A stretch of DNA of 64,000 bases from Patescibacteria group bacterium (GTDB lineage: Bacteria; Patescibacteriota; Patescibacteriia; 2-01-FULL-39-33). This document shows positions 12,773 to 61,566 of this stretch, piece after piece. Location: contig JBBTQN010000016.1 in NCBI GenBank assembly GCA_038065695.1, positions 11,738-75,737 of the forward strand. The letters are read 5' to 3'. Position 1 is the stretch's first letter, and the number at the start of each line of letters is the position of its first letter. The notes under the pieces were generated by a model. It did not search any database, was not told the DNA's origin, and saw only the letters and a list, made by a program, of their open reading frames with translations. Position numbers and translations under genes: made by a program.

Positions 12773-12859
12773 CGAAGTCAAAAGTCTATAAAGTCTATAA
12801 AGTCAAAAGTTTAAAAATGACTTTGGACTTTAAGGACTTTCGACTTTAAGACTTCGTTC
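12773..12859. repeat. AT-word palindromic spacer of the 'tataaagtc/gactttata' family
   Basis: The sequence is gtcaaaagtctataaagtctataaagtcaaaagtttaaaaatgactttggactttaaggactttcgactttaagac. The same word set appears at 50461-50520, 57730-57842 and 61445-61566. Confidence 0.75.
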
Positions 12860-16208: not shown

Positions 16209-16238
16209 ATATATGGCCTAGGCCATATATTTCTTTAA

Positions 16239-16394
16239 TTATTTCGTTTCCTTGTGCGCCGTGTGCTTGCGGCAATGTTTGCAATATTTTTTCATTTCCA
16301 ATCGGTTCTTTAAAATCTTTTTATTTTTGCGGGAAAAATAATTGATTTTTTTGCAAACCGCGCACTCCATTTTGATTAAGTTTTCTTGGGACAT
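16239..16394 (-). CDS. rpmG: 50S ribosomal protein L33
   Basis: Reads MECAVCKKINYFSRKNKKILKNRLEMKKYCKHCRKHTAHKETK. The ORF track extends to 16445, but that would overlap tRNA-Thr, so the start is placed at the Met at 16394. Confidence 0.8.
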   Translation of the reverse strand: MSQENLIKMECAVCKKINYFSRKNKKILKNRLEMKKYCKHCRKHTAHKETK

Positions 16395-16418
16395 AAATAT
16401 TTTATTAATTATTCTGCA

Positions 16419-20310: not shown

Positions 20311-20420
20311 GACATTTTCAAATGTCATCCCGAGGGAGAAGTGCCGAAGGCGCGACGACCGTGGGGATCCCATGGGATTGCCACGTCGCTCCGCTTACGC
20401 TTCGCTCCTCGCAATGACGG
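20311..20420. repeat. GC-rich hairpin repeat (tgtcatcccgagggag...gggatcccatgggattgcc...cctcgcaatgacgg)
   Basis: GC-rich with perfect stems. It shares its terminus (gggattgc...cctcgcaatgac) with the element at 29221-29285. Confidence 0.65.
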
Positions 20421-20422
20421 TT

Positions 20423-25438: not shown

Positions 25439-25575
25439 AAAAATAGTTAATTATTTTACTGTTAATTTTTACTACCCCCCCCCACAAATCTACGAATCAT
25501 TTACAAATCTACAAATTACAAATAATTATTTGTAGTATTTATAAATTCGTAGTGGGATTTGTAGATTTGCGGGGG

Positions 25576-28229: not shown

Positions 28230-28895
28230 TTATTTGAAAATTTGCTTATCTATTTTCTTCGCTTCGCCAACAAAAAATTTTTGCCACTCGTTTGGGTTGA
28301 TTTCTTTAATCATTCTGGGATAATCCTTGACTTCTCTTACTCTTAACAATTGGCTGCCCAATTGAATCGGGTCGATGTGCCAATCAAATTTTATCTTCGC
28401 TTTTTTAATTAATCCGTCAAGCCGCCATTTTTTATCTTTAAGAATAAAATACAAATCAATAAAATCGCGCGAACGGGGATTCTGGTAGATGGTAAAAATT
28501 TTGTTGACGGCAATATCAATCAAGCTGTCAATAAAAAGCCAACTGATTTTGTTTTTCCTTTCAATCCGCGGAAAGGGGTAATAAGTGAATTCGGTCTTGA
28601 TGATTTCGCCGTTTTTAAAATGGAGAAAAAAAAGATTCCGATTGAAACTTTGCTTGAAATCAACTTTTTTAAAGCCGCATTTCTTACTGATTGATTTAAA
28701 AAAGATAAAAATCGCTTGGGAATCGACTTCTTTTTCGGAAAAAAAATCCAAATCTTCCGAAAGCCGATGATGGAGATAAAATCCCGCCAAAGCGATGCCG
28801 CCGGTCAAATAAAAATCACGGCAGATTCCGGAATTAGTGGAAACTGCCTCTAAAACTTTTTTTTGATTTTGAGTCAAGATTTTTTCCGCGGCCAT
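28230..28895 (-). CDS. nucleotidyltransferase AbiEii/AbiGii-like toxin family protein
   Basis: Reads FYLTGGIALAGFYLHHRLSEDLDFFSEKE, matching the GGTAL..HR.S.DLDFF signature of AbiEii (DUF1814) proteins. Confidence 0.6.
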   Translation of the reverse strand: MAAEKILTQNQKKVLEAVSTNSGICRDFYLTGGIALAGFYLHHRLSEDLDFFSEKEVDSQAIFIFFKSISKKCGFKKVDFKQSFNRNLFFLHFKNGEIIKTEFTYYPFPRIERKNKISWLFIDSLIDIAVNKIFTIYQNPRSRDFIDLYFILKDKKWRLDGLIKKAKIKFDWHIDPIQLGSQLLRVREVKDYPRMIKEINPNEWQKFFVGEAKKIDKQIFK

Positions 28896-29220: not shown

Positions 29221-29285
29221 TTCTTTTTTTTAGATGGGATTGCTTCGGTCGTCCCGCCAAGGCGGGACTCCCTCGCAATGACATT
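29221..29285. repeat. GC-rich hairpin repeat (gggattgcttcggtcgtcccgccaaggcgggactccctcgcaatgac)
   Basis: Has the stem cccgcc-aa-ggcggg and shares its termini with 20380-20420. Confidence 0.65.
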
Positions 29286-30738: not shown

Positions 30739-30919
30739 AAATATAATTTTAGTTTTTAATTTTTAAATAAATTCTAATTTTTAATGTTTAAAAATTAAAA
30801 CATTAAAAATTATTTAAAAATTAAAAATTGGAAATTAAAAATTTACAAGACACTTTTATTTTACTTTATTCTTCTTAAAAAAGAAAGCCCCTATTTAGGG
30901 GCTTCAACTGATTACCGAG
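30739..30919. repeat. AT-word palindromic spacer ('ttaaaaatt' words)
   Basis: The palindrome is taatttttaatgtttaaaaattaaaacattaaaaatta. Confidence 0.6.
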
Positions 30920-32235: not shown

Positions 32236-32691
32236 TTATGATTTAGAAGATTTTATAAACTGGATTTTCCCGCCTCCTTCTTCAATCGCCTTTTGGGCGG
32301 AGGCAGAAAAAGCATTGGCAACGACGGTTAATTTTTTGGTCAACTTGCCGGCGCCTAATATCTTGATACCATTTTTAGTGTCGCGAATCAAGCCGGCTCT
32401 GATCATCAATCGAGCATTGATAACATCGCCATCTTGGAATTTTTTCTCCAAATCAGCCAAATTAACCACGGCAAACTTTTTGTTCAAGCTTTGAAAACCG
32501 CGCTTTTTAGGAATGCGCCTCAATGTCTGCTTTAGTCCCAAGAGCTTTAAACCGCCCTTGCCGCCGGATCTCGCCCTTTGGCCTTTCATACCCCGGCCGG
32601 AATAAGTGCCGCGCTTGCCCCCGCGACCAACCCGACGCGATTTTCTTTTTGAACCTTTAGCTGGTTTCAAATTGGATAAATTAAGTGGCAT
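32236..32691 (-). CDS. rplO: 50S ribosomal protein L15
   Basis: Reads KPAKGSKRKSRRVGRGGKRGTYSGRG. Confidence 0.9.
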   Translation of the reverse strand: MPLNLSNLKPAKGSKRKSRRVGRGGKRGTYSGRGMKGQRARSGGKGGLKLLGLKQTLRRIPKKRGFQSLNKKFAVVNLADLEKKFQDGDVINARLMIRAGLIRDTKNGIKILGAGKLTKKLTVVANAFSASAQKAIEEGGGKIQFIKSSKS

Positions 32692-32694
32692 AAT

Positions 32695-33207
32695 CTATTT
32701 ATTATTTTCTTGATTTAAATCTTTCTTTTCACTTTTCACCGCCTTTAATTTTTTTAGCCCCTCAATCGTCGCTTTGACGTTGTTAATCTTATTTTTGCCG
32801 CCCATTATCTTGGAAACAATATTTTCCACTCCCAAAAGTTCCAAAACCAAACGCACCGAACCACCGGAAATAATACCGGTGCCGACCGGAGCGGGTTTGA
32901 GCATCACTTTGGCCGCGCCATACTTCTGTAAAACTCCGTGAGGGATCGTGCCTTTGGTCAGGTTGACTTTGATTAAATTTTTTTCCGCTTTTTTGCTGGC
33001 CTTGCCCACGGAATCGGAAACGTCCTTGCCCTTAGCCAAGCCAAAACCGATCCGGCCCTTCCGGTCGCCGACCAAGACCGCCGCTCGAAATCTCATTCTT
33101 TTGCCGCCGGCCATGACTCTGGTGACCCGAGCGATTTCAACGATGGTCTGGTCGAATTCGGATTGCTCCTTTTTTCCCTTAAAGCTTCTTCTCTTATTAT
33201 TGGACAT
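32695..33207 (-). CDS. rpsE: 30S ribosomal protein S5 (directly followed by L15; no L30 gene)
   Basis: Reads VTRVMAGGKRMRFRAAVLVGD...GTGIISGGSVR. Confidence 0.9.
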   Translation of the reverse strand: MSNNKRRSFKGKKEQSEFDQTIVEIARVTRVMAGGKRMRFRAAVLVGDRKGRIGFGLAKGKDVSDSVGKASKKAEKNLIKVNLTKGTIPHGVLQKYGAAKVMLKPAPVGTGIISGGSVRLVLELLGVENIVSKIMGGKNKINNVKATIEGLKKLKAVKSEKKDLNQENNK

Positions 33208-33217
33208 ATATTTTTAA

Positions 33218-33577
33218 TTAAATTTTTAAACCGGCGTTTCTCGCGCCGTCGGCGACCGCCTTGATTCGGCCGTGGTATTTGGCTTCGCCTTTGTCAAAAA
33301 CCGCCTGTTTAACTCCTTTAGCCAGAGCTTTTTCCGCGATGATTTTTCCCAATCCGGCCGCCTTTTCTGTTTTGGTTTTACCGGTCTTGACTTCCCCGTC
33401 ACTTGCGCTCACGATGGTTTTTCCCGCTTCATCATCAATCAGCTGGGCGTAAATATGCTTCAAACTTCTAAATACCGAAAGTCGCGGGCGACTCTTCGTC
33501 CCAGAAATTTTTGCTCTCACTCTTTTCTTTCTCCTTAATTGAATTTGATTTTTTAATTTAGCTTTTTTCATAACCAA
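33218..33577 (-). CDS. rplR: 50S ribosomal protein L18
   Basis: Reads [20 protein letters not shown]. Confidence 0.9.
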
Positions 33578-33580
33578 TAA

Positions 33581-34120
33581 TTATTTAGCCGCCGCCTTGC
33601 CGGCTTTGCGCCTTAAAACTTCATCCGCGTATTTAATTCCTTTACCTTTGTAGGGCTCGGGTTTTTTAATTCTTTTTATTTGAGCGGCCGTTTCGCCGAC
33701 CAATTGCTTGTCAATCCCGCTGATGGCGATAATATTGCCTTCCATTTTTATTTCAATCCCGTCAGGAATCGCGTATTCCACCGGATGAGAAAAACCGACA
33801 TTTAAAATTAACTTTTTACCTGACACGGCCGCCTTAAAACCAATGCCGTTTATTTCCAATTTTTCAGAAAAGCCTTCGGTCACGCCTAAAACCATATTTT
33901 TAATCAAACTGCCGAAAAGCCCCCATAAAGCGCGTTGCGACTTTTCGGTTTCGTCTTCAACTTTAATATTAAAGATGCCGTCATTTATCGCCACTTTGAC
34001 TTGGGGATGAATTTCCTGGCGCAATTCGCCTTTCGGACCCTTAACCACGACAAAATTAGCTTCTATTTTAGCTTCTACTCCCGCGGGGATCTTGATCAAT
34101 TGTTTACCGATTCTACTCAT
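33581..34120 (-). CDS. rplF: 50S ribosomal protein L6
   Basis: Reads MSRIGKQLIKIPAGVE...FSHPVEY. Confidence 0.9.
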   Translation of the reverse strand: MSRIGKQLIKIPAGVEAKIEANFVVVKGPKGELRQEIHPQVKVAINDGIFNIKVEDETEKSQRALWGLFGSLIKNMVLGVTEGFSEKLEINGIGFKAAVSGKKLILNVGFSHPVEYAIPDGIEIKMEGNIIAISGIDKQLVGETAAQIKRIKKPEPYKGKGIKYADEVLRRKAGKAAAK

Positions 34121-34163
34121 ATTTTAAAAATATAAAAATATAAAAACTTAAAAATAAATTTTA

Positions 34164-34562
34164 TTAATAGATTTCACAGATTACCTCGCCGCCCAATCCT
34201 GTTTTTTTCGCCTCTTTGCCGGTCATCAGTCCTTGCGAAGTCGAGACGATCGCTAAGCCGTAATTATTTAAGACTTTGGGCAAATTATCTTTGCTGGCGT
34301 AAACCCGCCGGCCCGGTTTGGAAATCTTCTTGATCGAAGAAATAGCCGGCTCATTGTCTTTATACTTAAGCTGGATATTAAAACCGCCGAATTTCTTGTC
34401 TGGACTATAATCCATCTCTTCAAAACCATTAATAAAGCCTTCCTTCTTTAAAATCTTAATAATTTCCAGTTTCATCTTGGAAAAAGGAACATAAACCTCT
34501 TCTTTTTTCACTCTTGAGGCATTTCTGATTCTGGTTAGCATGTCAGCGATTGGATCAGTCAT
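34164..34562 (-). CDS. rpsH: 30S ribosomal protein S8
   Basis: Reads [15 protein letters not shown]...TSQGLMT. Confidence 0.9.
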
Positions 34563-34676
34563 AATATTAAAAACTTAAAAATATAAAAACTTAAAAATAA
34601 ATTTTTATCTGGATTATTATTTACATTTAATATTCTCTTCATATTTTTATATTCTTGTATTTTTATATTTTTATTG
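34563..34676. repeat. AT-word palindromic spacer ('tataaaaat' words) between rpsH and S14
   Basis: The sequence is ataatattaaaaacttaaaaatataaaaacttaaaaataaattttt...tttttatattcttgtatttttatattttta. Confidence 0.6.
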
Positions 34677-34862
34677 TTACCATGAAGATTTGCCAATACC
34701 TGGGATTTGACCGCTGGTGGCCAGCTCCCGGAAACAAATGCGGCACAACTTAAACTTTCTCATATAACCATGCCGACGACCGCAACGCCAGCATCGGTTA
34801 ACCGATCGGGTAGAATATTTTTGTTTCTTTTTTGATCTCGCGATTTGCGCTTCGGTTGCCAT
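34677..34862 (-). CDS. rpsZ: 30S ribosomal protein S14 type Z
   Basis: Reads [24 protein letters not shown]. Confidence 0.9.
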
Positions 34863-34968
34863 AATTTTAAAAATATAAAAATATAAAACTATAAAAATAT
34901 AAATTTTGGAACTGATTATTTTTTAGATCTAACATATTTTATTCTTGTATTATTGTGTTCTTGTATTT

Positions 34969-35514
34969 TTATGATTTTTGAAAAGGAAAACCAAGTAATT
35001 TAAACAATTCAAGTCCTCTTTCACGACTTTGGGCATTGGTGGTGATGGAAATCTCCAAACCGTGGATCCGTTCCACCTCGTCAGAACGAATTTCCGGAAA
35101 AACATTATGTTCTTTAAGCCCGATATTCAGATTGCCTTGAGAGTCAACATTTTTTTCCGGCAGACCTCGAAAATCGCGGATTCTCGGCAAGGAGACATTA
35201 ATCAGTTTGTCTAAAAAGTCATACATCCGTTTTCCCCTTATGGTCACCTTGACGCCCACGACCATATTTTCGCGCACTTTAAAAGCTGATATTGCCTGAC
35301 GCGCCTTAGCGCGCACCGGCTTCTGACCGGTAATACGCATTAAATTGTTTTCCACGTTTTCCAAGAGAGCATTGTCGGTGCTTCTGGAATTAATGCCCAC
35401 ATTGACGCTTACTTTCTCGATTTTCGGCGCGGCCATTTTATTTTTCAAGCCAAAACTAGCCACCAATTTCGGCGCCACTTCTTCCTGATATTTCTTGTAT
35501 AATTTAGATTTCAT
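34969..35514 (-). CDS. rplE: 50S ribosomal protein L5
   Basis: Reads APKIEKVSVNVGIN...GLEISITT. Confidence 0.9.
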   Translation of the reverse strand: MKSKLYKKYQEEVAPKLVASFGLKNKMAAPKIEKVSVNVGINSRSTDNALLENVENNLMRITGQKPVRAKARQAISAFKVRENMVVGVKVTIRGKRMYDFLDKLINVSLPRIRDFRGLPEKNVDSQGNLNIGLKEHNVFPEIRSDEVERIHGLEISITTNAQSRERGLELFKLLGFPFQKS

Positions 35515-35560
35515 ATCTTAATTATTCGTATATTCGTAATTATTCGCGATTCGTAGAGTA

Positions 35561-35881
35561 TTAAATTTCTTCTTTGCATTTTTTACAAACGCGCACTTTT
35601 ACTTTTTCGCCTGATTCCAATTTATTAATTTTGTAGCCGACTCTCGCGTCTCGGCCGCATTTCGGACAAATCAAAGAAACTTGCGAAATTCTGACCGCCC
35701 GAGGGAACTGAATCCTCTGCCCTTTTTCTCCCTGTCTTTTCCCTTTTTGGTGCTTAATAATCAAATTCAAACCTTCAATCATTAATCGGCCCTCACCGGC
35801 AAAAACCTGCAAAACCTTGCCGGCCTTGCCTTTATCCTTGCCCGAGAGCATTTTCACTTTGTCTCCTTTCTTAATCTTCAT
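35561..35881 (-). CDS. rplX: 50S ribosomal protein L24 with C-terminal CxxC...CxxC zinc-ribbon extension
   Basis: Reads [22 protein letters not shown]...CPKCG...CKKC. Confidence 0.85.
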   Translation of the reverse strand: MKIKKGDKVKMLSGKDKGKAGKVLQVFAGEGRLMIEGLNLIIKHQKGKRQGEKGQRIQFPRAVRISQVSLICPKCGRDARVGYKINKLESGEKVKVRVCKKCKEEI

Positions 35882-35986
35882 ATCTTAATTTAATTTGACT
35901 ACTTGATAAATTATTTATTATTTTTTCTCATCGTCCCGCCTTTTTAATTTTGATATTTTAATTTATTAATTTCTTAATTTTTTAAT

Positions 35987-36358
35987 CTACAACACCTCTG
36001 AAGCCAGAGAAATAATTTTCTGATACCCCAAATTCCTCAACTCCCTCGGTACCGGGCCGAAAACACGAGTCCCCTTCATCTCTTTTTCCTTCAAGTCAAT
36101 AATAACGGCCGCATTTTCATCAAAGCGGATATAAGAGCCATCCGAGCGGCGAACTTCCTTTTTGGTGCGGACCAAAACGGCATGGACCACATCGCCCTTT
36201 TTAACCAGGCTGTGAGGCACGGCTTCTTTTACGGAGGCAGTGACAATGTCGCCGATTCTGGCATATCTCTTTTGATAGCCGCCCAAAACTTTAATCACCT
36301 GGAGCTTTCTGGCTCCGGTATTGTCCGCGGATTTTAGCATTGACCTTGGTTGAACCAT
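35987..36358 (-). CDS. rplN: 50S ribosomal protein L14
   Basis: Reads [24 protein letters not shown]. Confidence 0.9.
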
Positions 36359-36408
36359 ATTATTTTAAAAATATAAAAATATAAAAATATTCTTGTATTC
36401 TTGTATTT

Positions 36409-36663
36409 TTATATTCTTGTATTCTTGTAAACCACCCGCCACCTTTTATCCTTACTCATCGGCCGGCATTCGATAAACTCAATCACATCCCCGATCTTGT
36501 ATTGATTCTTGGGATCGTGGACTTTATACTTTTTGCTTACTTTATATCTCTTGTGGTATCTGGGGTGCATTTTAAAACGGTCAATTTTAACCACGACGGT
36601 CTTTTCCATTTTATCGGAAACCACTTCGCCTTTGAATTTTTTTAATATTTTATTTTCCTTCAT
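36409..36663 (-). CDS. rpsQ: 30S ribosomal protein S17
   Basis: Reads [27 protein letters not shown]. Confidence 0.9.
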
Positions 36664-36672
36664 ATCTTTAAT

Positions 36673-36861
36673 TTAAGCTTTTTTTTGTTTTATTACCGTA
36701 AGTATTCGCGCGATATCTTTCTTTATCACCCTGACTTCGCGCATATTTTTCAATTGCTTCTGTCTTACTTTAAAATTTAAATCATCCAATTTACTTTGCA
36801 TTTCCTTCAATGTTTGATTTAACTCTTCAATTGATTTTAATCTAATTTCCTTTAATTCCAT
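36673..36861 (-). CDS. rpmC: 50S ribosomal protein L29
   Basis: Reads ELNQTLKEMQSKLDDLNFKV. Confidence 0.8.
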   Translation of the reverse strand: MELKEIRLKSIEELNQTLKEMQSKLDDLNFKVRQKQLKNMREVRVIKKDIARILTVIKQKKA

Positions 36862-36872
36862 ATCTGAATTAA

Positions 36873-37280
36873 TTATTTTTTGATAATAAATTTCGCCCTG
36901 ATCGGCAATTTGTAAGCGGCGAGCTCCATCGCCTCTTTGGCTTCTTTCTCGGCGATGCCATCCATCTCAAAAATGATATTGCCCGCTTTCACCGCGGCCA
37001 CATAATATTCCGGCGCGCCCTTGCCGCCGCCCATCGTGGATTGGCTGCCTTTGTTGGTAATCGGCCGATGCGGAAAAACCCGGATCCAAATCTTGCCGCC
37101 GCGCCTGATAAACCTAGCCATCGCCCGACGAGCCGCTTCCAGTTGGGAGGATTTGATCCAGCCGCCGGTCGTGGCTTTGAGCCCAAACTCGCCAAAAGCA
37201 ATGCTGTCATTGCTGGTGGCTCGGCCTTTTATATCCGGACGATGATGTTTTCTGTTTTTTAATTTTTTTGGCGCTAACAT
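36873..37280 (-). CDS. rplP: 50S ribosomal protein L16
   Basis: Reads MLAPKKLKNRKHHRP...RRGGKIWIRVFP. Confidence 0.9.
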   Translation of the reverse strand: MLAPKKLKNRKHHRPDIKGRATSNDSIAFGEFGLKATTGGWIKSSQLEAARRAMARFIRRGGKIWIRVFPHRPITNKGSQSTMGGGKGAPEYYVAAVKAGNIIFEMDGIAEKEAKEAMELAAYKLPIRAKFIIKK

Positions 37281-37294
37281 ATCTTAATAATAAT

Positions 37295-37984
37295 TTATTT
37301 TTTCTCTTTCGTATTATCAATTTCTTTACGATTGAAGACTTCGCCGCGGTAAATCCAAACTTTCACTCCGATTTTGCCGTAAATCGTCTGAGCCGCGCCG
37401 CGGCAGTAATCAATATCCGCCCTTAAAGTATGAAGGGGAATCTTGCCGGAAAAAAGCGTTTCTTCCCGGGCGATTTCCGCGCCGTTCAGCCGGCCGGCAA
37501 CGGTGATTTTGACGCCCTTGGCTCCCGCTTTTTCCACCCGGGCAATCGCCTGCTTGACCGCGCGCCTAAACGGAATGCGTTTTTCCAAATCAGCAATTAC
37601 TCCGTACATCACAATCGGCGCGTCAAGTCCCGGCTTATCCACTTCAAAAACATTAACCGTGATATTCTTAATGCCTTTCTGGCGGCTAAAAGCGTCTTTA
37701 AAAAATTTGTTGTGGATCTCTTTTTTCAGTTCCTCGGCGCCCTGCCCGCCGTGGCCGATGATAACGCCCGGCTTGCCAGCGTAGATATTGATGCTGACCG
37801 AATTGGCCGAACGCTCAATTTCCACCTTGGAGATTCCAGCCAGTTTTAATTTTTCCCTAATAAATCGGCGCGCCGAAACATCCTGTCTTAACAATTCAGG
37901 AAACTCTTGGTCGGCAAACCATTTGGAACTCCAAGTTTTATTGATTTTTAGCCGAAAAACTTTCGGATGAACTTTCTGACCCAT
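37295..37984 (-). CDS. rpsC: 30S ribosomal protein S3
   Basis: Reads MGQKVHPKVFRL, a KH domain and GAEIAR. The start is set at the Met at 37984. Confidence 0.9.
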   Translation of the reverse strand: MGQKVHPKVFRLKINKTWSSKWFADQEFPELLRQDVSARRFIREKLKLAGISKVEIERSANSVSINIYAGKPGVIIGHGGQGAEELKKEIHNKFFKDAFSRQKGIKNITVNVFEVDKPGLDAPIVMYGVIADLEKRIPFRRAVKQAIARVEKAGAKGVKITVAGRLNGAEIAREETLFSGKIPLHTLRADIDYCRGAAQTIYGKIGVKVWIYRGEVFNRKEIDNTKEKK

Positions 37985-38066
37985 AATTATAAAAATATAA
38001 AAATACAAGAATATAAAAATATTTTATTTTGAATTGTTTTTTGTTTTGTTGATTTTTTAATAACTA

Positions 38067-38600
38067 TCATCCTGATTTTCGATTAAAAAATCTTTTTGTA
38101 AATCCCTTCTTTGCCTTTTTATCTTGTCGTTCGTTTGGTTTTTTCCCTTCTTTTTTCGCTTCCGCTTTTTCTTTTACCTCAAACTCTTTCAAATCATCAA
38201 CCTTTATAATATCGTCTTTCTGATCTTCTTTTGGTTTGGCTTTTTTAATTTTCCCCGGCTCGGTTGGGACCCGCTCGGCCAAAATCAGAGAGAGATGAGA
38301 GGTGCGCTTTCGAATCGGCGTGGCTCGACCCATCGCTCTAGGCATAAAACGGTGAATCGTCGGACCGCCGTCAACTCTGATTTCCTTGATATATAAATTA
38401 CCTCTTTTCAAATTAAAATTCTCTTCGGCGTTTGAAATCGCTGACCTGATCAGCTTCTCCACTGGCCCAGTCGCTCTCTTCTTTAAAAACTTCAATTGGG
38501 TTAAGGCCTCTTCCACGTCTAAACCTTTAGTCAGATCAATGACTAATCTTACCTTCCTCGGCGACATTCTTAAAAAATTTGTTTTGGCTTTTAATTCCAT
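38067..38600 (-). CDS. rplV: 50S ribosomal protein L22 with Lys/Glu-rich C-terminal extension
   Basis: Reads KAKTNFLRMSPRKVRLVIDLTKG. Confidence 0.85.
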   Translation of the reverse strand: MELKAKTNFLRMSPRKVRLVIDLTKGLDVEEALTQLKFLKKRATGPVEKLIRSAISNAEENFNLKRGNLYIKEIRVDGGPTIHRFMPRAMGRATPIRKRTSHLSLILAERVPTEPGKIKKAKPKEDQKDDIIKVDDLKEFEVKEKAEAKKEGKKPNERQDKKAKKGFTKRFFNRKSG

Positions 38601-38618
38601 ACTGTTTTATTCGGCTGG

Positions 38619-38921
38619 TTATTTTTTCTCCGCCTCGGTCTTGGAGACGTCAATCGCTTTTTGAATCTTGCCGCCGTGCTTGACGAACTTGCGCGTCGGA
38701 GAAAATTCTCCTAGTTTATGGCCGACCATATTTTCCACCACGAAAACTTGAATAAATTCCCGGCCGTTATGAACGCCAAAAGTATAGCCTACCATTTCCG
38801 GCGTAATCGTGCAACCTCGAGACCAAGTCTTGATAACCACTTTGTCTCCCTTTTTTATTTTGGCCATTTTCTTGAGAAGTTTCTCGTCGACATAAGGGCC
38901 TTTTTTCAAACTTCTTGACAT
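38619..38921 (-). CDS. rpsS: 30S ribosomal protein S19
   Basis: Reads [18 protein letters not shown]...[17 protein letters not shown]. Confidence 0.9.
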
Positions 38922-39020
38922 ATTATTTTAGCTTATTAGCTGGTTAGCTTATTAGCTTGTTAGGATTCTCTTTTTATTTTTCCTAAGAAGCTAATAAGCT
39001 ACAAGCTACAACCTAATTAA
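38922..39020. repeat. AT-word palindromic spacer (ttagcttattagctggttagcttattagc ... gctaataagctacaagctac)
   Basis: An inverted repeat of the word 'gcttattagc' lies between rpsS and rplB. Confidence 0.65.
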
Positions 39021-39866
39021 TTATTTTTTCTTCCTTGACGGCCGGCGAGAAAGAATGAAGCGCTGTGAATACTTTCCTTTATTTCTCGTCCTGACGCCCA
39101 AAGCCACTTTGCCCCAAGGCGTTTTGGGTGATTTAAGACCGATCGGGTTGACGCCTTCACCGCCGCCATGAGGGTGATCGACCGGGTTCATCGCTTTGCC
39201 TCTCACCGTCGGCCTGATGCCTCGATGCCGCATTCGGCCGGCCTTGCCCCAGCGGATATTTTTAAAATCAGGATTGCTCACCACGCCAATCGTCGCCAAG
39301 CAGTCTTCATTAACCAATCTCACTTCTCCCGAGGGCATTTTAAGCTGAGCCAAATGGTTGTCAAAACCCATTAAATAAATTGAATTGCCGGCGCTCCGCG
39401 CCAACTGTCCGCCTCGGCCGGGAATCAATTCCACATTATAGACAAACATGCCGGCGGGGATGAATTTTAAGGGCATCGCGTTGCCCACTTTAATATCCGT
39501 CAAATTCTTTGAGCTCTTGACCGACTCACCGACTTTCAATTCTTGAGGAGCGACCATATATCTCTTTTCGCCGTCTTGATAAAAAAGCAGAGCGATCCGC
39601 GCGTTTCGGTTTGGATCATATTCAATGGAAACGACCTTGGCCGGTATCTCAAATTTGTCTCTTTTAAAATCAATCACTCTGATTTTTTTCCGCGCTCCGC
39701 CTCCTTGATGGCGCACGGTAATCTTACCTTGGGCGTTTCGGCCCGCCATTCTCTTTTTAGACACGATCAAGCCTTTCTCGGGTTTGTGCCGAGTGATGTC
39801 TCCTCTTTCCAAAACCGAAGTTTGGCGTCTCGCCGGGCTGGTTGGTTTGTATATTTTAATTGGCAT
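39021..39866 (-). CDS. rplB: 50S ribosomal protein L2
   Basis: Reads [16 protein letters not shown]...HPHGGGEG. Confidence 0.9.
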
Positions 39867-39944
39867 AATTTTATTAGCTTATGGCCCATGGCATATGGCT
39901 TACGGTATTTTATAAAAGCCATAAGCCATATGCCATATGCCGCG
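39867..39944. repeat. long hairpin spacer (gcttatggcccatggcatatggcttacgg...ccataagccatatgccatatgcc) between rplB and rplW
   Basis: An inverted repeat with a ~20-bp stem. Confidence 0.7.
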
Positions 39945-40427
39945 TTACGTGCCTTCTTGTATCTGAATCGCCTGGCCTTCAGGCAGGGTGATGATCGCTT
40001 TCTTCCAGCCCTTTCTGGTGCCAAAGCTCCGGCCCATTCTCACTTTTTTTCCGGAAAAATTTAAAATGTTAACGCTCGCGGGCTTCACGCCATAACGATT
40101 CAAAATCGCTTGGGCGATTTGAATTTTATTGGCGCCGATGTCAACGGCAAAAACATATTTATTCAAAATCCCCAAGCCCGTGCTTTTTTCCGTGATGAGC
40201 GGACGAATTAAAACGCCATGAAACTCTTTCTTCGACAAAATCTTCTCTTTCAATTCTTTGTTTGTTTTTGTCGGCTTGATGGCCGCCTTCTCTTCTTTAA
40301 TCTTCTGTTCTTTAATTTCCGGCTCCATTTTCACCTCTTCTTTTTTCGCAACTTTAACCTTCGGCTCACGCTTGGCCGCCTTCTCTTCTTTCTTGGCTGG
40401 TTTTTTAAAACTGCTAAATATTCCCAT
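39945..40427 (-). CDS. rplW: 50S ribosomal protein L23 with Lys/Glu-rich N-terminal extension
   Basis: Reads LIRPLITEKST...FAVDIGANKIQIAQAI. Confidence 0.85.
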   Translation of the reverse strand: MGIFSSFKKPAKKEEKAAKREPKVKVAKKEEVKMEPEIKEQKIKEEKAAIKPTKTNKELKEKILSKKEFHGVLIRPLITEKSTGLGILNKYVFAVDIGANKIQIAQAILNRYGVKPASVNILNFSGKKVRMGRSFGTRKGWKKAIITLPEGQAIQIQEGT

Positions 40428-40441
40428 ATAATATAGTTGCG

Positions 40442-41098
40442 TTATTTTATCTTCCGATAATGCTTCTCAATTATTTTAATCGCTTTCTCCGAGGTTAAAA
40501 TCGTGTCGTATTTCAAAACATCCAGGCAGTTCAAGCTGTCCGCCAAAATCGTGTTGGCATTCTTGAGATTCAAAGCCGCTCGGATAAAATCCCGGTCATT
40601 TTTGTCCAGAACCAACAAAAATTTCTTGCTTTTTTCCAAATCTTCAATTTTTGTCTTCAATTCTTTGAGCCAACCGCCCAAGGCCTTAGTTTTGACTTCT
40701 TTCAATTTTAATTCATTGAAAACCACCAAGGAATTTTCTTTCACTTTATCCGAAAGGCACATCGCCAGAGCCAGCTGTTTCTGCTTCTTGTTCACTTTCT
40801 CTTTGAAATTCCGGTCTTTTCTTGGGCCGAAAGTGACGCCGCCGCCAATCCATAAAGGTGAACGGATTGAGCCGTGCCGCGCTCGGCCGGTGCCTTTTTG
40901 GCGCCACGGCTTTTTGCCGCCGCCTCTCACTTCGCCCTTGGTCTTAGTGTGGGCCAAAACTTGCCTGGAGTTGGCCATTTGCGCGACCACCACCTGATGG
41001 ACGACCTCATTCTTCGGTTTGACGCCAAAAATCCGGGAACTTAATTCCATCTCTTTCATTTTCTCGCCGCTTAAATTGTAGACGGGAATCTTTATCAT
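40442..41098 (-). CDS. rplD: 50S ribosomal protein L4
   Basis: Reads QVVVAQMANSRQVLAHTKTKGEVRGGGKKPWRQKGTGRAR. Confidence 0.9.
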   Translation of the reverse strand: MIKIPVYNLSGEKMKEMELSSRIFGVKPKNEVVHQVVVAQMANSRQVLAHTKTKGEVRGGGKKPWRQKGTGRARHGSIRSPLWIGGGVTFGPRKDRNFKEKVNKKQKQLALAMCLSDKVKENSLVVFNELKLKEVKTKALGGWLKELKTKIEDLEKSKKFLLVLDKNDRDFIRAALNLKNANTILADSLNCLDVLKYDTILTSEKAIKIIEKHYRKIK

Positions 41099-41146
41099 AT
41101 CGGTAATTGGTAAATGGTAACTGGTAATTATTATTCTATTTTATTT

Positions 41147-41878
41147 TTATTTTTTTTCCTTAACCTCTTCCGACGCTTTAGTTTGGTCTTCAATTTTAAC
41201 TTCTTTTTTAATTCCTTCCACTGACGCCTCTTCTTGTTTTACTTCTTCTTTCTTTAATTCCATCTTGCCCGGTCCGTAAATCATTAGAAGTCCGTTTCTC
41301 GCTCCCGGGACCGCGCCAGAAACATATAAAATATTTTTTTCTTTATCAATCTCCACGACTTTGAGGCCGCTCACCGTTACTTGCGCGTCACCCATGTGTC
41401 CAGGCATTCTTTTGCCCTTCATCACTCTTTGCGGATCGGTATTGCCGATGGAGCCGGGCATTCTTTCCTGGTCTTTGTGGCCATGGCTGCTTTTCTGGCC
41501 GTGAAAACCGTGGCGCTTGACCACGCCCTGGAAGCCCCGCCCTTTGGAATTGCCCGTCACTTTAATTTTATCGCCGGCTTCAAAAGCCCCCACCGTAATC
41601 ACATCGCCGCGATTTAAACCGCCCATCTCATCTTCGGCGATTTCAAACTCACGCAAAGTTTTCAACTTGGGTAAATCCTTCAAGTGGCCGGCTTGCGGCT
41701 TTTTCAATTTTTTAGCCGCGCCAAAGCCGACTTGGACTGCCGTCGTGTTTTCTTTGCCCTTAGTTTTCAACTGGGTGATTACATTGGGCTCGGCCAAGAC
41801 TGCCGTGACCGGAACCACGTCGCCGTTATCCTTGAAAACCTGGGTCATTTCTAATTTTTTGCCTAGAATAAATTTCAT
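41147..41878 (-). CDS. rplC: 50S ribosomal protein L3 with C-terminal extension
   Basis: Reads GKKLEMTQVFKDNGDVVPVT...GFHGQKSSHGH. Confidence 0.9.
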   Translation of the reverse strand: MKFILGKKLEMTQVFKDNGDVVPVTAVLAEPNVITQLKTKGKENTTAVQVGFGAAKKLKKPQAGHLKDLPKLKTLREFEIAEDEMGGLNRGDVITVGAFEAGDKIKVTGNSKGRGFQGVVKRHGFHGQKSSHGHKDQERMPGSIGNTDPQRVMKGKRMPGHMGDAQVTVSGLKVVEIDKEKNILYVSGAVPGARNGLLMIYGPGKMELKKEEVKQEEASVEGIKKEVKIEDQTKASEEVKEKK

Positions 41879-42260
41879 ATTTTATATGATACCAATATAC
41901 GAATGTTTACCAATGATACGAATGTTGCTTTGGGAATAACTTAGAATGATTAGTAGCATTGGTATGATTCGTATATTAGTATCATATTTTATTTGTATAA
42001 AAAAACCTGGCCACATACCTTAAGCCAGATTCAACTTGTCGCGCCAAAAAGCACTACTTGTTAAATTCTATATCTTAATTTAGTATGTCGGTTTTCCCTT
42101 TTTAATCGATGTCGATTATGGAGGTTTTCCCCTTTTTGCTTCTATAATTACGCGGGAACTTTCTCCATTTTCTTCATTGATTATAATTCTCTACGAATTA
42201 CGAATTTTTACGAATTTACGAATATTTGTATATTCGTACCGATTCGTAATTCGTAGAAGG
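41879..42260. other. 382-bp structured spacer between rpsJ and rplC (word palindromes; terminator-like hairpin ctggcttaaggtatgtggccag + T-run on minus strand at ~42002-42040)
   Basis: Direct reading. There are no convincing ORFs, and the region contains direct repeats of ggttttccc(c)ttttt. Confidence 0.5.
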
Positions 42261-42608
42261 TTACATTTTAATCTCAATGTTGACTCCGGCCGGCAAATTT
42301 AAATTCATGAGCGCGTCCACCGTCTTACTGTCAGGATCAATGATGTCAATCAAGCGCTTGTGAACTCTCATTTCAAACTGATCTCGGCTGTCCTTATGGA
42401 CAAAAGTCGATCGGTTGACGGTATATTTTTTCTTTTCCGTCGGCAGGGGAATCGGACCGGCGACTTTGGCGCCGAATCTCTGGCAGGTCTCAATAATCTT
42501 TTTCGCCGAACTGTCAATAATCTTGTTATCGTACGCCTTGATTTTTATCCTGATCCGTTGGTGCGCCTTTTCATTAGTCGCGCTTGCCGCCGAGGTTTTA
42601 CTGGCCAT
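42261..42608 (-). CDS. rpsJ: 30S ribosomal protein S10
   Basis: Reads [24 protein letters not shown]...GPIPLPT. Confidence 0.9.
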
Positions 42609-42678
42609 TATTTTTTAATTAACTATTTCTTCGCTCACATAAGGGACCCCAAAAAAGGGATCCCTTATGGAAAAACTT

Positions 42679-43869
42679 TTATTTAATGATTTTAGTGACG
42701 ACACCCGCGCCCACCGTGTGTCCACCCTCTCTAATCGCGAATTTCATTTTTTCTTCCATCGCCACCGGTTTGCCCAGTTTCACTTTCAAATTATTGATGG
42801 TATCGCCCGGCATCACCATTTCCACGCCTTCGGCGAGTTCAATCTCACCGGTCACATCGGTGGTGCGGACATAAAACTGCGGCTTGTAGCCCTTGAAAAA
42901 CGGTTTGTGCCGGCCGCCTTCCTCTTTGGACAGGACATAAACTTCCGCTTCAAAATCGGTATGCGGGGTGATTGAGCCCGGCTTGGCGAGTACTTGGCCG
43001 CGCTCCACTTCTTCTTTTCTGATGCCGCGGAGCAAAATGCCGGCATTATCGCCCGCTCGGCCTTCATCTAATGACTTGTTAAACATTTCAATGCCGGTGA
43101 CCACGGTCTTTTTGGTTTCGCCCAAACCGACGATTTCCACTTCTTCATTGAGCTTGACCAGGCCTCTTTCAATCCGGCCGGTCACGACCGTGCCGCGGCC
43201 TTCAATGGAAAAAACATCTTCAATCGGCATTAAAAACGGCTGGTCAGTCGCTCTCTGCGGCTCGGGAATATAAGTATCCAAAGCTTCCATCAGTTTCATC
43301 ACCGGCTCGGCGTCCGGACCGGTCGGATCCGCCAGCGCTTTCAAAGCGCTGCCTCGGATAATCGGCGTAGCATCGCCGGGGAATTCATATTTTTTGAGTA
43401 AGTCGCGGATTTCTTCTTCCACTAAATCAATCAAAGACGGATCGTCCACTTGGTCAACTTTATTGATGAAGACCACGATATAAGGCACGCCGACTTGTCT
43501 CGCGAGCAAGATGTGCTCTCTGGTCTGGGGCATCGGGCCGTCAGTCGCGGCCACGACCAAAATCGCGCCGTCCATCTGCGCCGCGCCGGTAATCATGTTT
43601 TTAATGTAGTCAGCATGACCCGGGCAGTCCACATGCGCGTAGTGCCTTTTTTCGGTTTCATACTCCACATGAGCGGTCGCGATCGTTATACCGCGCGCTT
43701 TTTCTTCCGGCGCCGCGTCAATCTGGTCAACTGACTTATCCTGCGCTCTAAACCCTTTAGCTCTTAAAATCTTTAGGATCGCCGCCGTCAAAGTCGTTTT
43801 GCCATGGTCCACATGGCCGATGGTGCCCACATTGATATGGGGCTTGCTTCGGTCAAATTGTTCTGCCAT
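42679..43869 (-). CDS. tuf: elongation factor Tu
   Basis: Reads [23 protein letters not shown]...DCPGHADY...NKVD. Confidence 0.95.
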
Positions 43870-44060
43870 TTTTTTAAACCTTTGGTTGAGGCCCCCGCCA
43901 AAGGCGGGTTTTATCCAGACCTCACTCTTTATTTATAAAAACACAAGAATATAAGAAAAAATATAAAAACACAGAAACCCAAATATTTTTATGTTTTTGT
44001 GTTTTATATCTTTATAATTATAGCATATTTTAAATATTTAGCAAGAGCAGTTATCCCTAA

Positions 44061-44459
44061 TTATTCCACCGTCTCAAAATAAAGCGGGTCTTCCTCGTTT
44101 TTTTCCTTATTTTGGCTAAAATCTTCGGAAGATATTGGGTTTTCCGGCTCGGCCGGCGAGCCAAAATCCGACCCGGCTCCCTCTGTCCAATCTGGCTTAT
44201 TACGACCATTTTCCGTTAAATCAGCCGGAAAATCAGCTTGGCCAAAGGGCAAATCTTGGTCTTTATCCTCCCACCAATTACGCCAATCATCGTCGTTACG
44301 GCCAATTTCAGCCAAAAAATCATCAGGGGAAAAGTCATCGTCAGAAACCATTTTTTCATAATCGGAAAAAGGCATAATCACAAAACTCGGCTCGCCATTT
44401 TCATCCAAAATAATGGCTTTATCGCCGGTTTTTTTAATGAGAGAGAAAAGTTTTTTCAT
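44061..44459 (-). CDS. hypothetical acidic protein; N-terminus resembles Phd/YefM antitoxin fold
   Basis: Reads KAIILDENGEPSFVIMPFSDYEKMV, followed by a D/E/W-rich tail. Confidence 0.35.
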   Translation of the reverse strand: MKKLFSLIKKTGDKAIILDENGEPSFVIMPFSDYEKMVSDDDFSPDDFLAEIGRNDDDWRNWWEDKDQDLPFGQADFPADLTENGRNKPDWTEGAGSDFGSPAEPENPISSEDFSQNKEKNEEDPLYFETVE

Positions 44460-44514
44460 AGGATTTTAGGTTACCCACGAATCTACAAATCTTGCTACGA
44501 ATTTACAAATCGAT

Positions 44515-44612
44515 TTCCCCTCCTTTCTAAGGAGGGGTTAGGGGAGGTTATGAAAGTCACGAAAATTGGCGTGAGTTTCAAAACCCCTCCTAACCTCCCC
44601 TTTGAAAGGGGA
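44515..44612. repeat. GGGGAGG-family composite palindromic element (hairpin-arm-hairpin-arm-hairpin)
   Basis: The sequence is cccctcctttctaaggagggg-ttaggggagg-ttatgaaagtcacgaaaattggcgtgagtttcaaaa-cccctcctaa-cctcccctttgaaaggggagg. Confidence 0.85.
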
Positions 44613-44720
44613 GGAATTTAACGAATATTCGTAAATTCGTAAAAATTCGTAATTCGTAGTTATTTTTATCTAAATTTAGCTAATTTTTATAAATAAAATA
44701 TTAATAATTTCTCTACGGGG

Positions 44721-44757
44721 TTGACTTTTTTATTAGATATGGTATAAATGGTATAAT
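44721..44757 (+). promoter_or_regulatory. sigma70-like promoter (TTGACT-16/17-TATAAA/ATAAAT; duplicated -10 ggtataaatggtataattgg)
   Basis: ttgact at 44721-44726. The downstream gene has a strong SD, aagaggag, 8 nt before its ATG at 44843. Confidence 0.55.
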
Positions 44758-44842
44758 TGGGTGTTAAGTCAGCGCTTGTTTTGATTGGCAAAATGAGCGA
44801 GCTGACTATGAAAATAGGACATTAACAAAGAGGAGAAAAAAG

Positions 44843-45739: not shown

Positions 45740-46018
45740 TTAAAATAAATCATCATGCGATCCGGTAGCCACTAATTCCAAAACCAAAATGTCATGCCGG
45801 TAGCGATAGATTAAAAGCCAATCAGGCGCAATATGACATTCCCAGCAATCCTTAAAATTGCCGACTAATTTATGATTGCAATTTTTATCCGGAACATCTT
45901 TTCTTTCAATCAATAAGCTAATAATTGCTTTCAAATTATTAAATAAATCAGGATCTGATTTTTTTAATTTACGATATTGCCGCTTGAATTTGTTTGTATA
46001 CCAGATTGAATAAGCCAT
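45740..46018 (-). CDS. yafQ: type II toxin YafQ/RelE family mRNA interferase
   Basis: Reads KFKRQYRKL...HKLVGNFKDCWECHIAPDWLLIYRYRHDILVLELVATGSHDDLF. Confidence 0.8.
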   Translation of the reverse strand: MAYSIWYTNKFKRQYRKLKKSDPDLFNNLKAIISLLIERKDVPDKNCNHKLVGNFKDCWECHIAPDWLLIYRYRHDILVLELVATGSHDDLF

Positions 46019-46021
46019 AAA

Positions 46022-46306
46022 CTAGGATAAGAGCTGTTTTTCTAATTCCTTTAAACTCCTTGCCGGCTTACGACGACCGGATTTGTAAGCTGCCTCCATT
46101 GCAGCAATTTCGGCTAAAATCTTTTTTTCTTGTTCTGGCGTAAAACCATTTTCGGTCGTTAGTAAAAAGGGCACGCCCTGATCGCGAACCACTTTGGCCA
46201 AATAAATCTTGATCCCTGTGCTTAAATCAAGGCCCAAAGAATTAAAAATTTTCGCGGCTTGGCGCTTGATTTTTTTATCCACTCTGGCTTGGACTAATTC
46301 AGTCAT
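46022..46306 (-). CDS. dinJ: type II antitoxin DinJ/RelB family
   Basis: Reads ARVDKKIKRQAAKIFNSLGLDLSTGIKIYLAKVVRDQGVPFLL, 3 nt upstream of yafQ. Confidence 0.8.
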   Translation of the reverse strand: MTELVQARVDKKIKRQAAKIFNSLGLDLSTGIKIYLAKVVRDQGVPFLLTTENGFTPEQEKKILAEIAAMEAAYKSGRRKPARSLKELEKQLLS

Positions 46307-46423
46307 AAAATTTAATATTATTAATATATTCATATTGTATTACATTGTATAGACATTGTCAATAGAGTTATCCACAACCAAAAAATCCCCCGCCAGAACG
46401 GAAGATTTTTTTATTATAATAAC

Positions 46424-49571: not shown

Positions 49572-49829
49572 AATTATAAAAAATTAAGAAATTAAAAAAA
49601 TAAAAAAATAAATTTATTTATCCAAATATTATTTGTAGATCCGTAAAGGATTTGTAGATTCGTGGGAGTTCGTGGGAGAATAAAAAGTTCCCCCGCGGGG
49701 AACCCCAAAAATTAGAATTAGGTTGTTTTTATCCTAAGTATTTTGGGGTGTAATTATTAATAATTAACTCTAAATATTCTAACTGATTCGCCGAGATAAG
49801 TCAACTAGGCAATTTTCCAATGGCTAAAA

Positions 49830-50460: not shown

Positions 50461-50700
50461 CGATGAAGTTGAAAGTTTATAAAGTCTGTAAAGTCAAAAG
50501 TCTGACGACGACTTTATTTTATATTAACATTATTGACTTATTTTGACAAATATGATAAGATTATATCCATAAACAAATATCTTGAGAATTTTTAATTTCC
50601 AATTTTTAATTTTTAAATAATTTTTAATGATTTAATTTTTAAAAATTAGAAATTAGATCATTATTTAAAAATTACAAAATTAAAAATTAAAAATTTCATT
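50461..50700. repeat. AT-word palindromic spacer ('tataaagtc' then 'ttaaaaatt' words)
   Basis: Direct reading. Confidence 0.6.
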
Positions 50701-57729: not shown

Positions 57730-57842
57730 ATAAAAATTTATTTATTAATAAATTTTAATTTATAAAGTCCATAAAGTCGAAAGTCTATAAAGTCGTCTGA
57801 TTAATGACTTTAAGAACTTTATGAACTTTTAACTTTATAGAC
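57730..57842. repeat. AT-word palindromic spacer ('tataaagtc' family) separating nrdD body from its glycyl-radical tail
   Basis: The sequence is ttttaatttataaagtccataaagtcgaaagtctataaagtcgtctgattaatgactttaagaactttatgaacttttaactttatagactt. Confidence 0.75.
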
Positions 57843-61444: not shown

Positions 61445-61566
61445 ATAATTTAGTTTATAAAGTTTATAAAGTTAAAAGTTTATAAAATCATCTTTTTAAT
61501 AATTATTTTTATCTAATATACTTTTGACTTTATAGACTTTATAGACTTTATAGACTTTTGACTTCG
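61445..61566. repeat. AT-word palindromic spacer ('tataaagtt ... gactttatagac' inverted)
   Basis: The pairing gtttataaagtttataaagttaaaagt ... acttttgactttatagactttatagactttatagac forms a near-perfect long palindrome. Confidence 0.75.

Follow-up and report, generated by a model that had tools for sequence, protein, structure and literature searches.

Word-array spacers in the S10-spc operon of a Patescibacteria bacterium: a candidate lineage-specific family of dispersed repeats

The subject of this work is the DNA that separates the genes of the S10-spc ribosomal protein operon in a 64,000-nucleotide stretch of a Patescibacteria genome (the window), which is the reverse strand of an 86-kb contig assembled from Hainich groundwater (0.1-µm-filtered metagenome, ENA ERZ1292629, Hain_H43_01um). 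On the minus strand the genes follow each other in the order tuf, S10, L3, L4, L23, L2, S19, L22, S3, L16, L29, S17, L14, L24, L5, S14, S8, L6, L18, S5, L15, secY, adk and map. L30 is missing between S5 and L15, as is expected in bacteria of the Candidate Phyla Radiation (CPR), whose genomes of about 1 Mb are assumed to be streamlined. Judged by L2, the nearest species representatives (72-77% identity) are Candidatus Buchananbacteria and other Patescibacteria. In a collection of 5.8 billion proteins the closest L2, exact matches aside, has 81% identity, and an exact-protein look-up with RNase J found nothing.

A preliminary description of this DNA held that long AT-rich palindromes, built of short ‘words’, pad nearly every gap of the operon. 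The genes and gaps are where it placed them and the quoted words are present (Table 1). The gaps measure 382 nt (S10-L3), 48 nt (L3-L4), 78 nt (L23-L2), 99 nt (L2-S19), 82 nt (L22-S3), 50 nt (S17-L14), 105 nt (L14-L24), 46 nt (L24-L5), 106 nt (L5-S14), 114 nt (S14-S8) and 43 nt (S8-L6), and ten of the 17 internal junctions are at least 40 nt long. The premise that ribosomal operons have gaps of 0-20 nt holds for most relatives, with sporadic cases of padding among other Patescibacteria and in some Chloroflexi. Periodicity and inverted-repeat scores were judged against dinucleotide-preserving shuffles, with arrays called at p≤0.01. RNA folding was judged by z-scores of the minimum free energy (MFE) from 200 dinucleotide shuffles, which replace an earlier MFE screen with mononucleotide shuffles. 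Tandem periodicity of 7-8 nt exceeds the shuffles in 8 of the 14 operon gaps.

The spacers are real. Logan assemblies of two other runs (ERR3858116 and ERR3858118) are 100% identical to the window over 3.4-3.9 kb, seven spacers included, and analogous elements occur in dozens of unrelated metagenome-assembled genomes (MAGs). The chance that they are artefacts of assembly or simulation is thus practically nil. The contigs of both runs terminate within tataaaaa-type spacers, as is usual for repeated sequence in short-read assembly.

Table 1. Position, strand and make-up of the features in the window, with their fold (MFE in kcal/mol and z-score) and tandem period in nt (p-value)
Feature	Position	Strand	Make-up	Fold	Period
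S8-L6 spacer	34121-34163	-	solitary T-rich array of tttttata words, stops 5 nt before ATG; no hairpin	z -0.3	8 (p=0.005)
S14-S8 spacer	34563-34676	-	A-rich words (tataaaaa/tacaagaa), loop, T-rich words; weak hairpin, inverted-repeat score no higher than shuffles	-15.1, z -2.4	
L5-S14 spacer	34863-34968	-	tacaagaa words on the 5' side, tttttata words on the 3' side; fold not significant	z +0.6	8 (p<0.005)
L24-L5 spacer	35515-35560	-	tacgaat words, direct only	-0.6, z +1.4	
L14-L24 spacer	35882-35986	-	A-rich attaaaaa/aagaaatt words, unstructured	z +0.25	8 (p<0.005)
S17-L14 spacer	36359-36429	-	tacaagaa array (36366-36429), then tttttata arm; short AU hairpin	-7.0, z -3.5	
L22-S3 spacer	37985-38066	-	A-rich run, then T-rich arm tatttttatattcttgtatttttatatttttat; fold not significant	z +0.7	
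L2-S19 spacer	38922-39020	-	strong hairpin: gtagctt/gcttattagc words and complement agctaataagc	-36.0, z -7.2	
L23-L2 spacer	39867-39944	-	strong hairpin: ggcatat/ggcttat heptamers and complement	-37.8, z -6.3	7 (p<0.005)
L3-L4 spacer	41099-41146	-	solitary ttaccaN heptamer array, wholly unstructured	0	7 (p<0.005)
S10-L3 gap, 3' element	41879-41990	-	long hairpin of atactaat/tacgaat/taccaat words, ends 8 nt before L3 ATG	-35.8, z -9.6	
S10-L3 gap, attenuator/terminator-like hairpin	41996-42032	-	GC-rich stem (ctggc...gccag) and U7 run		
S10-L3 gap, structured RNA motif	42111-42175	-	AUGGAGAAAGUUCCCG...GGGGAAAACCUCCAU (also given as AUGGAGAAAGAUCCCG...GGGGAAAACCUCCAU); not a word repeat		
S10-L3 gap, 5' element	42180-42260	-	hairpin of tacgaat words, from 3 nt past the S10 stop	-32.4, z -8.5	
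tuf-S10 gap	42609-42678	-	GC-rich hairpin (ataagggatccc/gggtcccttat)	-25.5, z -4.8	
secY-adk gap palindrome	30742-30845	-	about 105 nt, aattaaaaa words; downstream of canonical terminator 30884-30905		
tuf upstream region	43940-44044	-	sigma-70-like promoter (44017-44044), then word palindrome (ataaaacacaaaaacataaaaata / tgtgtttttatat...)		
rpmB upstream palindrome	50580-50698		second copy of the secY-adk element		
aaagtc-N3 nonamer hairpin	12773-12859	+	cgaagtcaaaagtctataaagtc...; kin at 50465-50501, 57730-57842 and 61445-61566		
ctacaaat/tacgaat word hairpin outside the operon	25439-25575	-	inverted-repeat z 8.7; kin at 44460-44842 and 49572-49829		
cacaaaaa octamer array	5274-5310	-	4.5 units, inside the pyruvate:ferredoxin oxidoreductase (PFOR) gene (4990-6165)		

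Several spacers share sequence with distant sites. The 3' arm of the 5' element in the S10-L3 gap (42191-42226) recurs inverted at 44624-44659 (36 nt, 100% identity), 34641-34674 of the S14-S8 spacer is the exact reverse complement of 37989-38022 of the L22-S3 spacer (34 nt), and 12773-12804 is identical to 61535-61566 (32 nt). The S8-L6 spacer has 95% identity to 34567-34605, and the word of the L3-L4 array recurs as a palindrome at 1905-1945. A 106-nt palindrome is present both in the secY-adk gap (30747) and upstream of rpmB (50580-50685) with 90.6% identity between the two copies, whose differences are too few to inform on compensatory changes. The longest exact match between different gaps reaches 43 nt, compared with 14-20 nt in first-order Markov resamples. 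Distant sites thus share identical stretches of 32-43 nt that are not periodic and have irregular spacers, so the spacer DNA was copied and did not grow in place.

This bears on a rival explanation, in which the spacers are AT-rich intergenic background, locally expanded by slippage, with nothing dispersed or mobile. The inverted-repeat scores of very AT-rich gaps do lie within the range of the shuffles, and heptamer-scale simple repeats are a known product of slippage in prokaryotes, as Mrazek 2007 is quoted in PMC4679880. However, identical non-periodic segments with irregular spacers lie kilobases apart and in both orientations. The GC-containing words (ggcatat, agctaataagc, tacgaat, aaagtc) do not follow background composition either, and a relative of the same GC content has no arrays. 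Hence we consider this explanation very unlikely.

The same word families are found outside the operon, with arrays or palindromes at 1905, 12773, 24541, 25439, 30742, 43950, 44460, 48557, 49108, 49572, 50465, 50580, 57730 and 61445. These include tagaaat words at 24541, aattaaaaa words at 30742, 48557 and 50580 and a ttaccag palindrome at 1905, and T-rich octamers lie upstream of rpsL and of rpsG. The word palindromes reported after secY, before tuf and beside rpmB are present, and some elements lie between convergent or divergent genes. Arrays are called in 7 of the 35 non-operon gaps versus 8 of the 14 operon gaps. The padding is therefore not specific to the operon, since similar arrays fill many other gaps; it is nevertheless not uniform and goes beyond the background composition.

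Two arrays reach into genes. The cacaaaaa array is in frame within a linker of the PFOR alpha subunit, where it encodes HKNTKTQKHKNT and begins about 20 residues into the PFOR_II Pfam match; repeat DNA is absorbed into the protein here. The tacaagaa array enters the coding end of S17 by 21 nt (36409-36429), encoding ...YKNTRI and the stop, and S17 has 84 aa in the window versus 79 aa in the nearest relative.

That relative (L087, L2 81% identical) has a GC content of 45%, compared with 43.5% in the window. Over the orthologous 16.8 kb it has no array and none of its 17 junctions reaches 40 nt, versus ten junctions and seven arrays in the window. Since the operon of L087 is compact and free of arrays, the padding arose in the lineage of the window. 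Padded operons appear sporadically in other Patescibacteria (L013, L014, L015, L040, L042, L053), with different elements at different junctions. L015 has five near-identical hairpins of 118-123 nt at five junctions, and L013 and L022 have multi-copy families of their own. Between L006 and L008, which share 86% identity in their coding sequences, three junctions differ in whole elements, and the elements at L2-S19 are unrelated. In the L3-L4 and L22-S3 gaps of this pair a GC palindrome of 26-31 nt (ccgccagc(c/t)ggcgg core) is present in one genome only, nested exactly in the middle of a hairpin of ccataagc words, and forms a second, smaller insertion layer.

Some Chloroflexi operons are padded as well, with heptamer arrays (aggttcc, ccctagc) on either side of a short central hairpin. 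In L080 (Candidatus Promineofilum), L066 and L069 nearly all gaps of the ribosomal operon are padded with two heptamer arrays each. These arrays (aggttcc... and ...ccctagc/cctggcc) are not complementary, keep a constant orientation to transcription and are followed by a normal GGAG site.

Hence, we suggest that the spacers are a genome-wide, lineage-specific family of small, non-coding, dispersed repeats, which resembles repetitive extragenic palindromic (REP) elements, miniature inverted-repeat transposable elements (MITEs) or minisatellites and is tolerated by the operon rather than needed by it. We put the probability of this at roughly 0.55. The family looks like selfish or neutral DNA of recent spread and not like a set of dedicated RNA signals. 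A selfish spacer family of the lineage was among the early proposals, and it fits the dispersed copies, their absence from the nearest relative and the rapid replacement of elements.

Only four elements form strong hairpins (-32 to -38 kcal/mol, z -6 to -10), namely the L2-S19 and L23-L2 spacers and the two end elements of the S10-L3 gap, and the S17-L14 and S14-S8 spacers fold weakly. Six of 13 spacers (L5-S14, L22-S3, L24-L5, L14-L24, L3-L4 and S8-L6) are tandem arrays of 7-8 nt words without structure and fold no better than shuffles. The view that all of them are imperfect palindromes is thus only half correct. The inverted words reported at 35515-35560 do not exist there, as the tacgaat words are direct and their inverted partner is absent. 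Inverted-repeat alignment scores agree with the MFE results. Within aaagtc hairpins 90% of the core is paired, compared with 59% of the variable triplet between cores (p=7e-11), and therefore the palindrome looks like a by-product of head-to-head arrays of the same word.

Functional RNA hairpins between the cistrons, which serve as sites of RNase III, J or Y or as barriers to 3' exonucleases and tune the stability or stoichiometry of mRNA segments, would be another origin of the spacers. REPs between the cistrons of E. coli operons work in this way, and so do stem-loops of the Clostridium cip-cel operon. The four very stable hairpins span their gaps from a few nt past the stop to 6-16 nt before the start; at L2-S19 the foot lies 4 nt past the stop and 6 nt ahead of the start. 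The feet of 100 intercistronic hairpins in Patescibacteria operons are placed similarly, at a median of 6 nt past the stop and 13.5 nt before the start. The window also encodes RNase J, and operon gaps are enriched in arrays over the other gaps. However, six of 13 spacers do not fold, the junctions with hairpins vary among relatives and the closest relative has none. The same elements also occur between convergent or divergent genes and within coding sequence, and ribosomal proteins are equimolar, so that differential stability has no obvious use. Stem mismatches point in the same direction. In the mRNA sense G·U and A·C number 14 and 15 in the window, and 164 and 204 in the 100 hairpins of relatives. 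There is no sign of selection on RNA pairing, since A·C, which such selection should purge, is not depleted relative to G·U. We therefore find RNA hairpins an unlikely origin of the spacers, and the proposal of RNase processing sites unsupported.

The word hairpins were also considered as intrinsic terminators and rejected, since none is called terminator-like and their AT-rich stems lack a U tract. Canonical terminators do exist in this genome, past secY and in the S10-L3 gap. Side effects of the four strong hairpins in the mRNA are probable, such as pausing, a barrier to 3' exonucleases or weaker translational coupling. These look like consequences of the elements and not the reason for their existence.

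In the reading that we favor, each repeat consists of words of 7-9 nt in tandem and stands alone or faces an array of the complementary word head-to-head; because arrays are paired in this way, many elements resemble imperfect palindromes. Several word families coexist (tataaaaa/tacaagaa, tacgaat/ctacaaat, aaagtc-N3, gctaataa/gccataa and aattaaaaa). The elements begin past the stop codon, with the hairpin foot at a median distance of 6 nt, and leave free some 13 nt ahead of the next start. They may move like REPs or MITEs, as non-autonomous elements, or multiply when copies recombine, and their length may change by replication slippage on units that exceed the reach of mismatch repair. The most conserved operon presumably tolerates them because its starts are free of Shine-Dalgarno (SD) sites and are served by a short, AU-rich, unstructured leader, so that an insertion upstream of it would disrupt nothing.

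SD-like motifs precede only 4 of 79 genes of the window and none of the 24 in the ribosomal cluster. They are scarce in close relatives too, in contrast to the Chloroflexi loci, where 15 of 20 genes have one. A+T makes up 80% of the 20 nt before the starts, and 73% of genes have T at -1. As the starts are SD-less and AU-rich, insertions upstream of the last ~10 nt would remove no ribosome-binding signal. Some start contexts recur (ttaagatATG and tttttaaaat(t)ATG in the window, ctaatNNatATG in relatives).

A number of observations weigh against a merely tolerated repeat. The enrichment of arrays in operon gaps may reflect a function tied to strong expression. T-rich arrays placed directly before starts (S8-L6, S14-S8, L5-S14, S17-L14, L22-S3, rpsG and rpsL) would fit a role in translation. 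The TACGAAT and AAAGTC cores in distant Patescibacteria, Chloroflexi and viral contigs suggest recognition by a conserved protein rather than pure junk. Neither a transposase nor a REP-associated tyrosine transposase (RAYT, a Y1 transposase, PF01797) or insertion sequence (IS) gene is found among the window proteins with Pfam data, and no target-site duplication is recognisable in the AT-rich flanks.

TACGAAT is one of the widely distributed words. Its clusters are present in 6 of ~75 genomes sampled, two Chloroflexi among them, and it ranks first of 60 heptamer classes of the same composition, 50 of which have no cluster. Three exact consecutive copies are found in 63 stretches of viral contigs (L090-L152), versus 3 and 1 for two controls of the same composition. 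These stretches belong to IMG/VR phages and giant-virus MAGs with a GC content of 30-65%, and many of them stand out in GC-rich phage genomes. Examples lie at 5395-5415 of L103 and 4793-4854 of L116. Viral TACGAAT arrays often lie beside arrays of AATTAGG, a combination also seen in two ribosomal operons of Chloroflexi, L066 and L069. Relative to the flanking open reading frames (ORFs), by crude gene calls, 16 viral arrays are sense and 25 antisense, which is no orientation preference. AAAGTC-N3 arrays are found in at least ten Patescibacteria, including a distant genome from the same aquifer (L027), and the closest relative of the window lacks them. This distribution hints at horizontal spread or at a conserved protein that recognises the words.

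The arrays could accordingly be binding sites, either in RNA, as a standby, enhancer or repressor site for an S1-, cold-shock- or CsrA-like protein, or in DNA, for a nucleoid-associated or transposase-like protein. Arrays stop a few nt from start codons, solitary arrays are unstructured and SD sites are absent, while word cores are conserved and the spacers and the triplets between cores vary. The recurrence of TACGAAT across phyla and viral contigs speaks for binding as well, and protein binding was also proposed for the TAACTGA heptamer repeats of Beggiatoaceae (PMC4679880), which likewise precede ribosomal protein genes without ribosome-binding sites (RBSs). A single protein would not account for the many unrelated words of one genome, however. 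The nearest relative manages without arrays, the viral arrays have no preferred orientation and no candidate binding protein was identified. We regard protein binding as unlikely overall, although the conserved word cores leave some room for a candidate binding protein, such as the nucleoid protein named in the preliminary description.

A related and similarly doubtful idea is that TACGAAT/AATTACG and AAAGTC-N3 form a shared vocabulary, i.e. undescribed array elements that spread horizontally and are recognised by a conserved protein. This protein would be a single-strand transposase-like enzyme or an RNA- or DNA-binding factor of SD-less translation. The arrays in question stand in tandem or head-to-head at non-orthologous intergenic sites of distant Patescibacteria, of Chloroflexi ribosomal operons and of phage and giant-virus contigs. 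A role as DNA-uptake sequences was considered too, with a ComEC gene encoded in the window, and was judged unlikely in view of the tandem arrays, the many word families and the occurrence of the words across phyla.

The S10-L3 gap is composite, with window-specific word hairpins at its ends and a conserved centre; the 3' element is not present in relatives. In the centre, the terminator-like hairpin and T-run of the preliminary description are confirmed. An equivalent hairpin and T-run is found in L087, L003, L005, L006 and L007, and its position is conserved in all close relatives. The structured motif next to it, located between rpsJ and rplC, occurs in 16 Buchananbacteria-like genomes, and 5 of its 10 pairs show compensatory changes. 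Patescibacteria loci, unlike those of Chloroflexi, generally have a long S10-L3 gap (200-950 nt). The stretch 42111-42175 thus has what characterizes a ribosomal-protein leader, namely a covarying conserved structure ahead of a ribosomal protein gene, coupled to an attenuator. From these sequence comparisons the centre of the gap is likely an undescribed ribosomal-protein leader with an attenuator between rpsJ and rplC. Rfam 15, searched at E≤1 over 41800-44150, gives only spurious matches to microRNA precursors on the palindromes and no leader family, and a scan of the whole window at the gathering thresholds gives five tRNAs and nothing else.

Within the 3' arm of the S10-L3 palindrome there is a promoter-like TTGGTA-N16-TATCAT with a TG (41886-41913, minus strand). 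The -10 box of this site stops 7 nt short of the L3 ATG, and the site, if used, would give a leaderless or near-leaderless L3 transcript.

Other features of the neighbourhood belong to different classes. The hairpin of the tuf-S10 gap is separate from the word spacers, and relatives have a GC hairpin at the same place. A GC-rich repeat family (gtcattgcgagg...; gtcattcc...gggatgac) lies at 20374-20422, ~29250-29284 and 1960-2080; it is intergenic in the genome of the window and in many Patescibacteria (L013, L040, L053), ribosomal operons included. A RelB/YafQ toxin-antitoxin pair is located between fusA and tuf (45740-46333) and an AbiEii-family gene between ruvX and map (28230-28895), so the conserved str/S10-spc neighbourhood also holds inserted accessory genes. 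A small uncalled ORF among the tRNA genes (16209-16418, minus strand) resembles L33 by eye and has two CxxC pairs (MSQENLIKMECAVCKK...CKHCRKHTAHKETK).

Descriptions of small dispersed repeats in CPR bacteria are scarce. Our search of the literature for repeats and REPs of the CPR, for the use of SD sites by Patescibacteria and for the word arrays themselves brought up no earlier description. Since close relatives diverged, several repeat families have entered even the S10-spc operon, which points to active repeat dynamics in reduced genomes, and SD-less start regions tolerate long insertions between cistrons. There is also a practical effect, since such repeats break short-read assemblies and mislead gene callers: the S14 gene (34677-34862) was missed by the gene caller of the contig, and the ends of S3 and S17 are affected. 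The leads of greatest promise are the recurrence of words across phyla and the covarying RNA motif between rpsJ and rplC.

Last but not least, the elements can be compared with known repeat systems. The REP elements of Proteobacteria, with bacterial interspersed mosaic elements (BIMEs) and REP doublets forming hairpins (REPINs), are mobilised by RAYT. Like them, many of the elements are short imperfect palindromes in multiple copies, extragenic and often intercistronic, variable between lineages and able to form hairpins in mRNA. Dispersed copies are seen within the 64 kb of genome at hand, and about half of them are palindromic. The tacgaat/ctacaaat and gtagctt families have CTAC/GTAG at the hairpin foot (tctacgaat...attcgtaga; gttgtagc). 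However, this foot is absent from the tataaaaa, ggcatat, aattaaaaa and aaagtc families, and the arms are arrays of 7-9 nt words with variable spacers, unlike the single conserved ~35-nt unit of REP. Half of the copies stand alone and have no inverted partner, and several word families with no relation to each other occur side by side. No RAYT was seen in the 64 kb, and the host belongs to the CPR, for which the literature search brought up no REP census. REP elements have been surveyed across many phyla, Patescibacteria not among them (PMC12306157).

Simple repeats with units of 5-11 nt, heptamers foremost, are patchily abundant in prokaryotes (PMC4679880). TAACTGA heptamer repeats lie upstream of RBS-less starts in Beggiatoaceae, cyanobacteria and Bacteroidetes, ribosomal operons included; binding of S1, Csp or CsrA was proposed for them and horizontal transfer suspected (PMC4679880). 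The arrays of the window resemble them in their direct units of ~7 nt, intergenic position, ends near RBS-less starts and patchy occurrence across phyla. They differ in their words, in the frequent inverted pairing (Maribeggiatoa has 169 direct sets versus 1 indirect) and in unit length, since 8 and 9 nt occur as often as 7 nt. As in long simple sequence repeats in general, tandem repeats of 5-11 nt units exceed chance, here in 8 of the 14 operon gaps and 7 of the 35 others. The STRR heptamers of cyanobacteria are another tandem heptamer system.

MITEs, or transposon ends with subterminal repeats, have a likeness in the layout of words, loop and inverted words over 80-120 nt, in the multiple copies of L015 and in the nested insertions that distinguish L008 from L006. 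Terminal inverted repeats are found as well, e.g. cgaagtc...gacttcg and tctacgaat...attcgtaga. No target-site duplication is recognisable in the AT-rich flanks and no parent element was identified (the window has no IS), and the words abut at a spacing of 7-9 nt, tighter than usual protein-binding sites.

Finally, Rickettsia palindromic elements (RPEs) are 100-150 nt long, conserved in sequence and mostly inserted in frame into genes. Intrusions into coding sequence are rare and short in the window, which sets its elements apart from RPEs. The two systems nevertheless share small palindromic repeats, a reduced genome and entry into coding sequence without loss of the protein, which is seen here in the PFOR linker and the S17 C-terminus.

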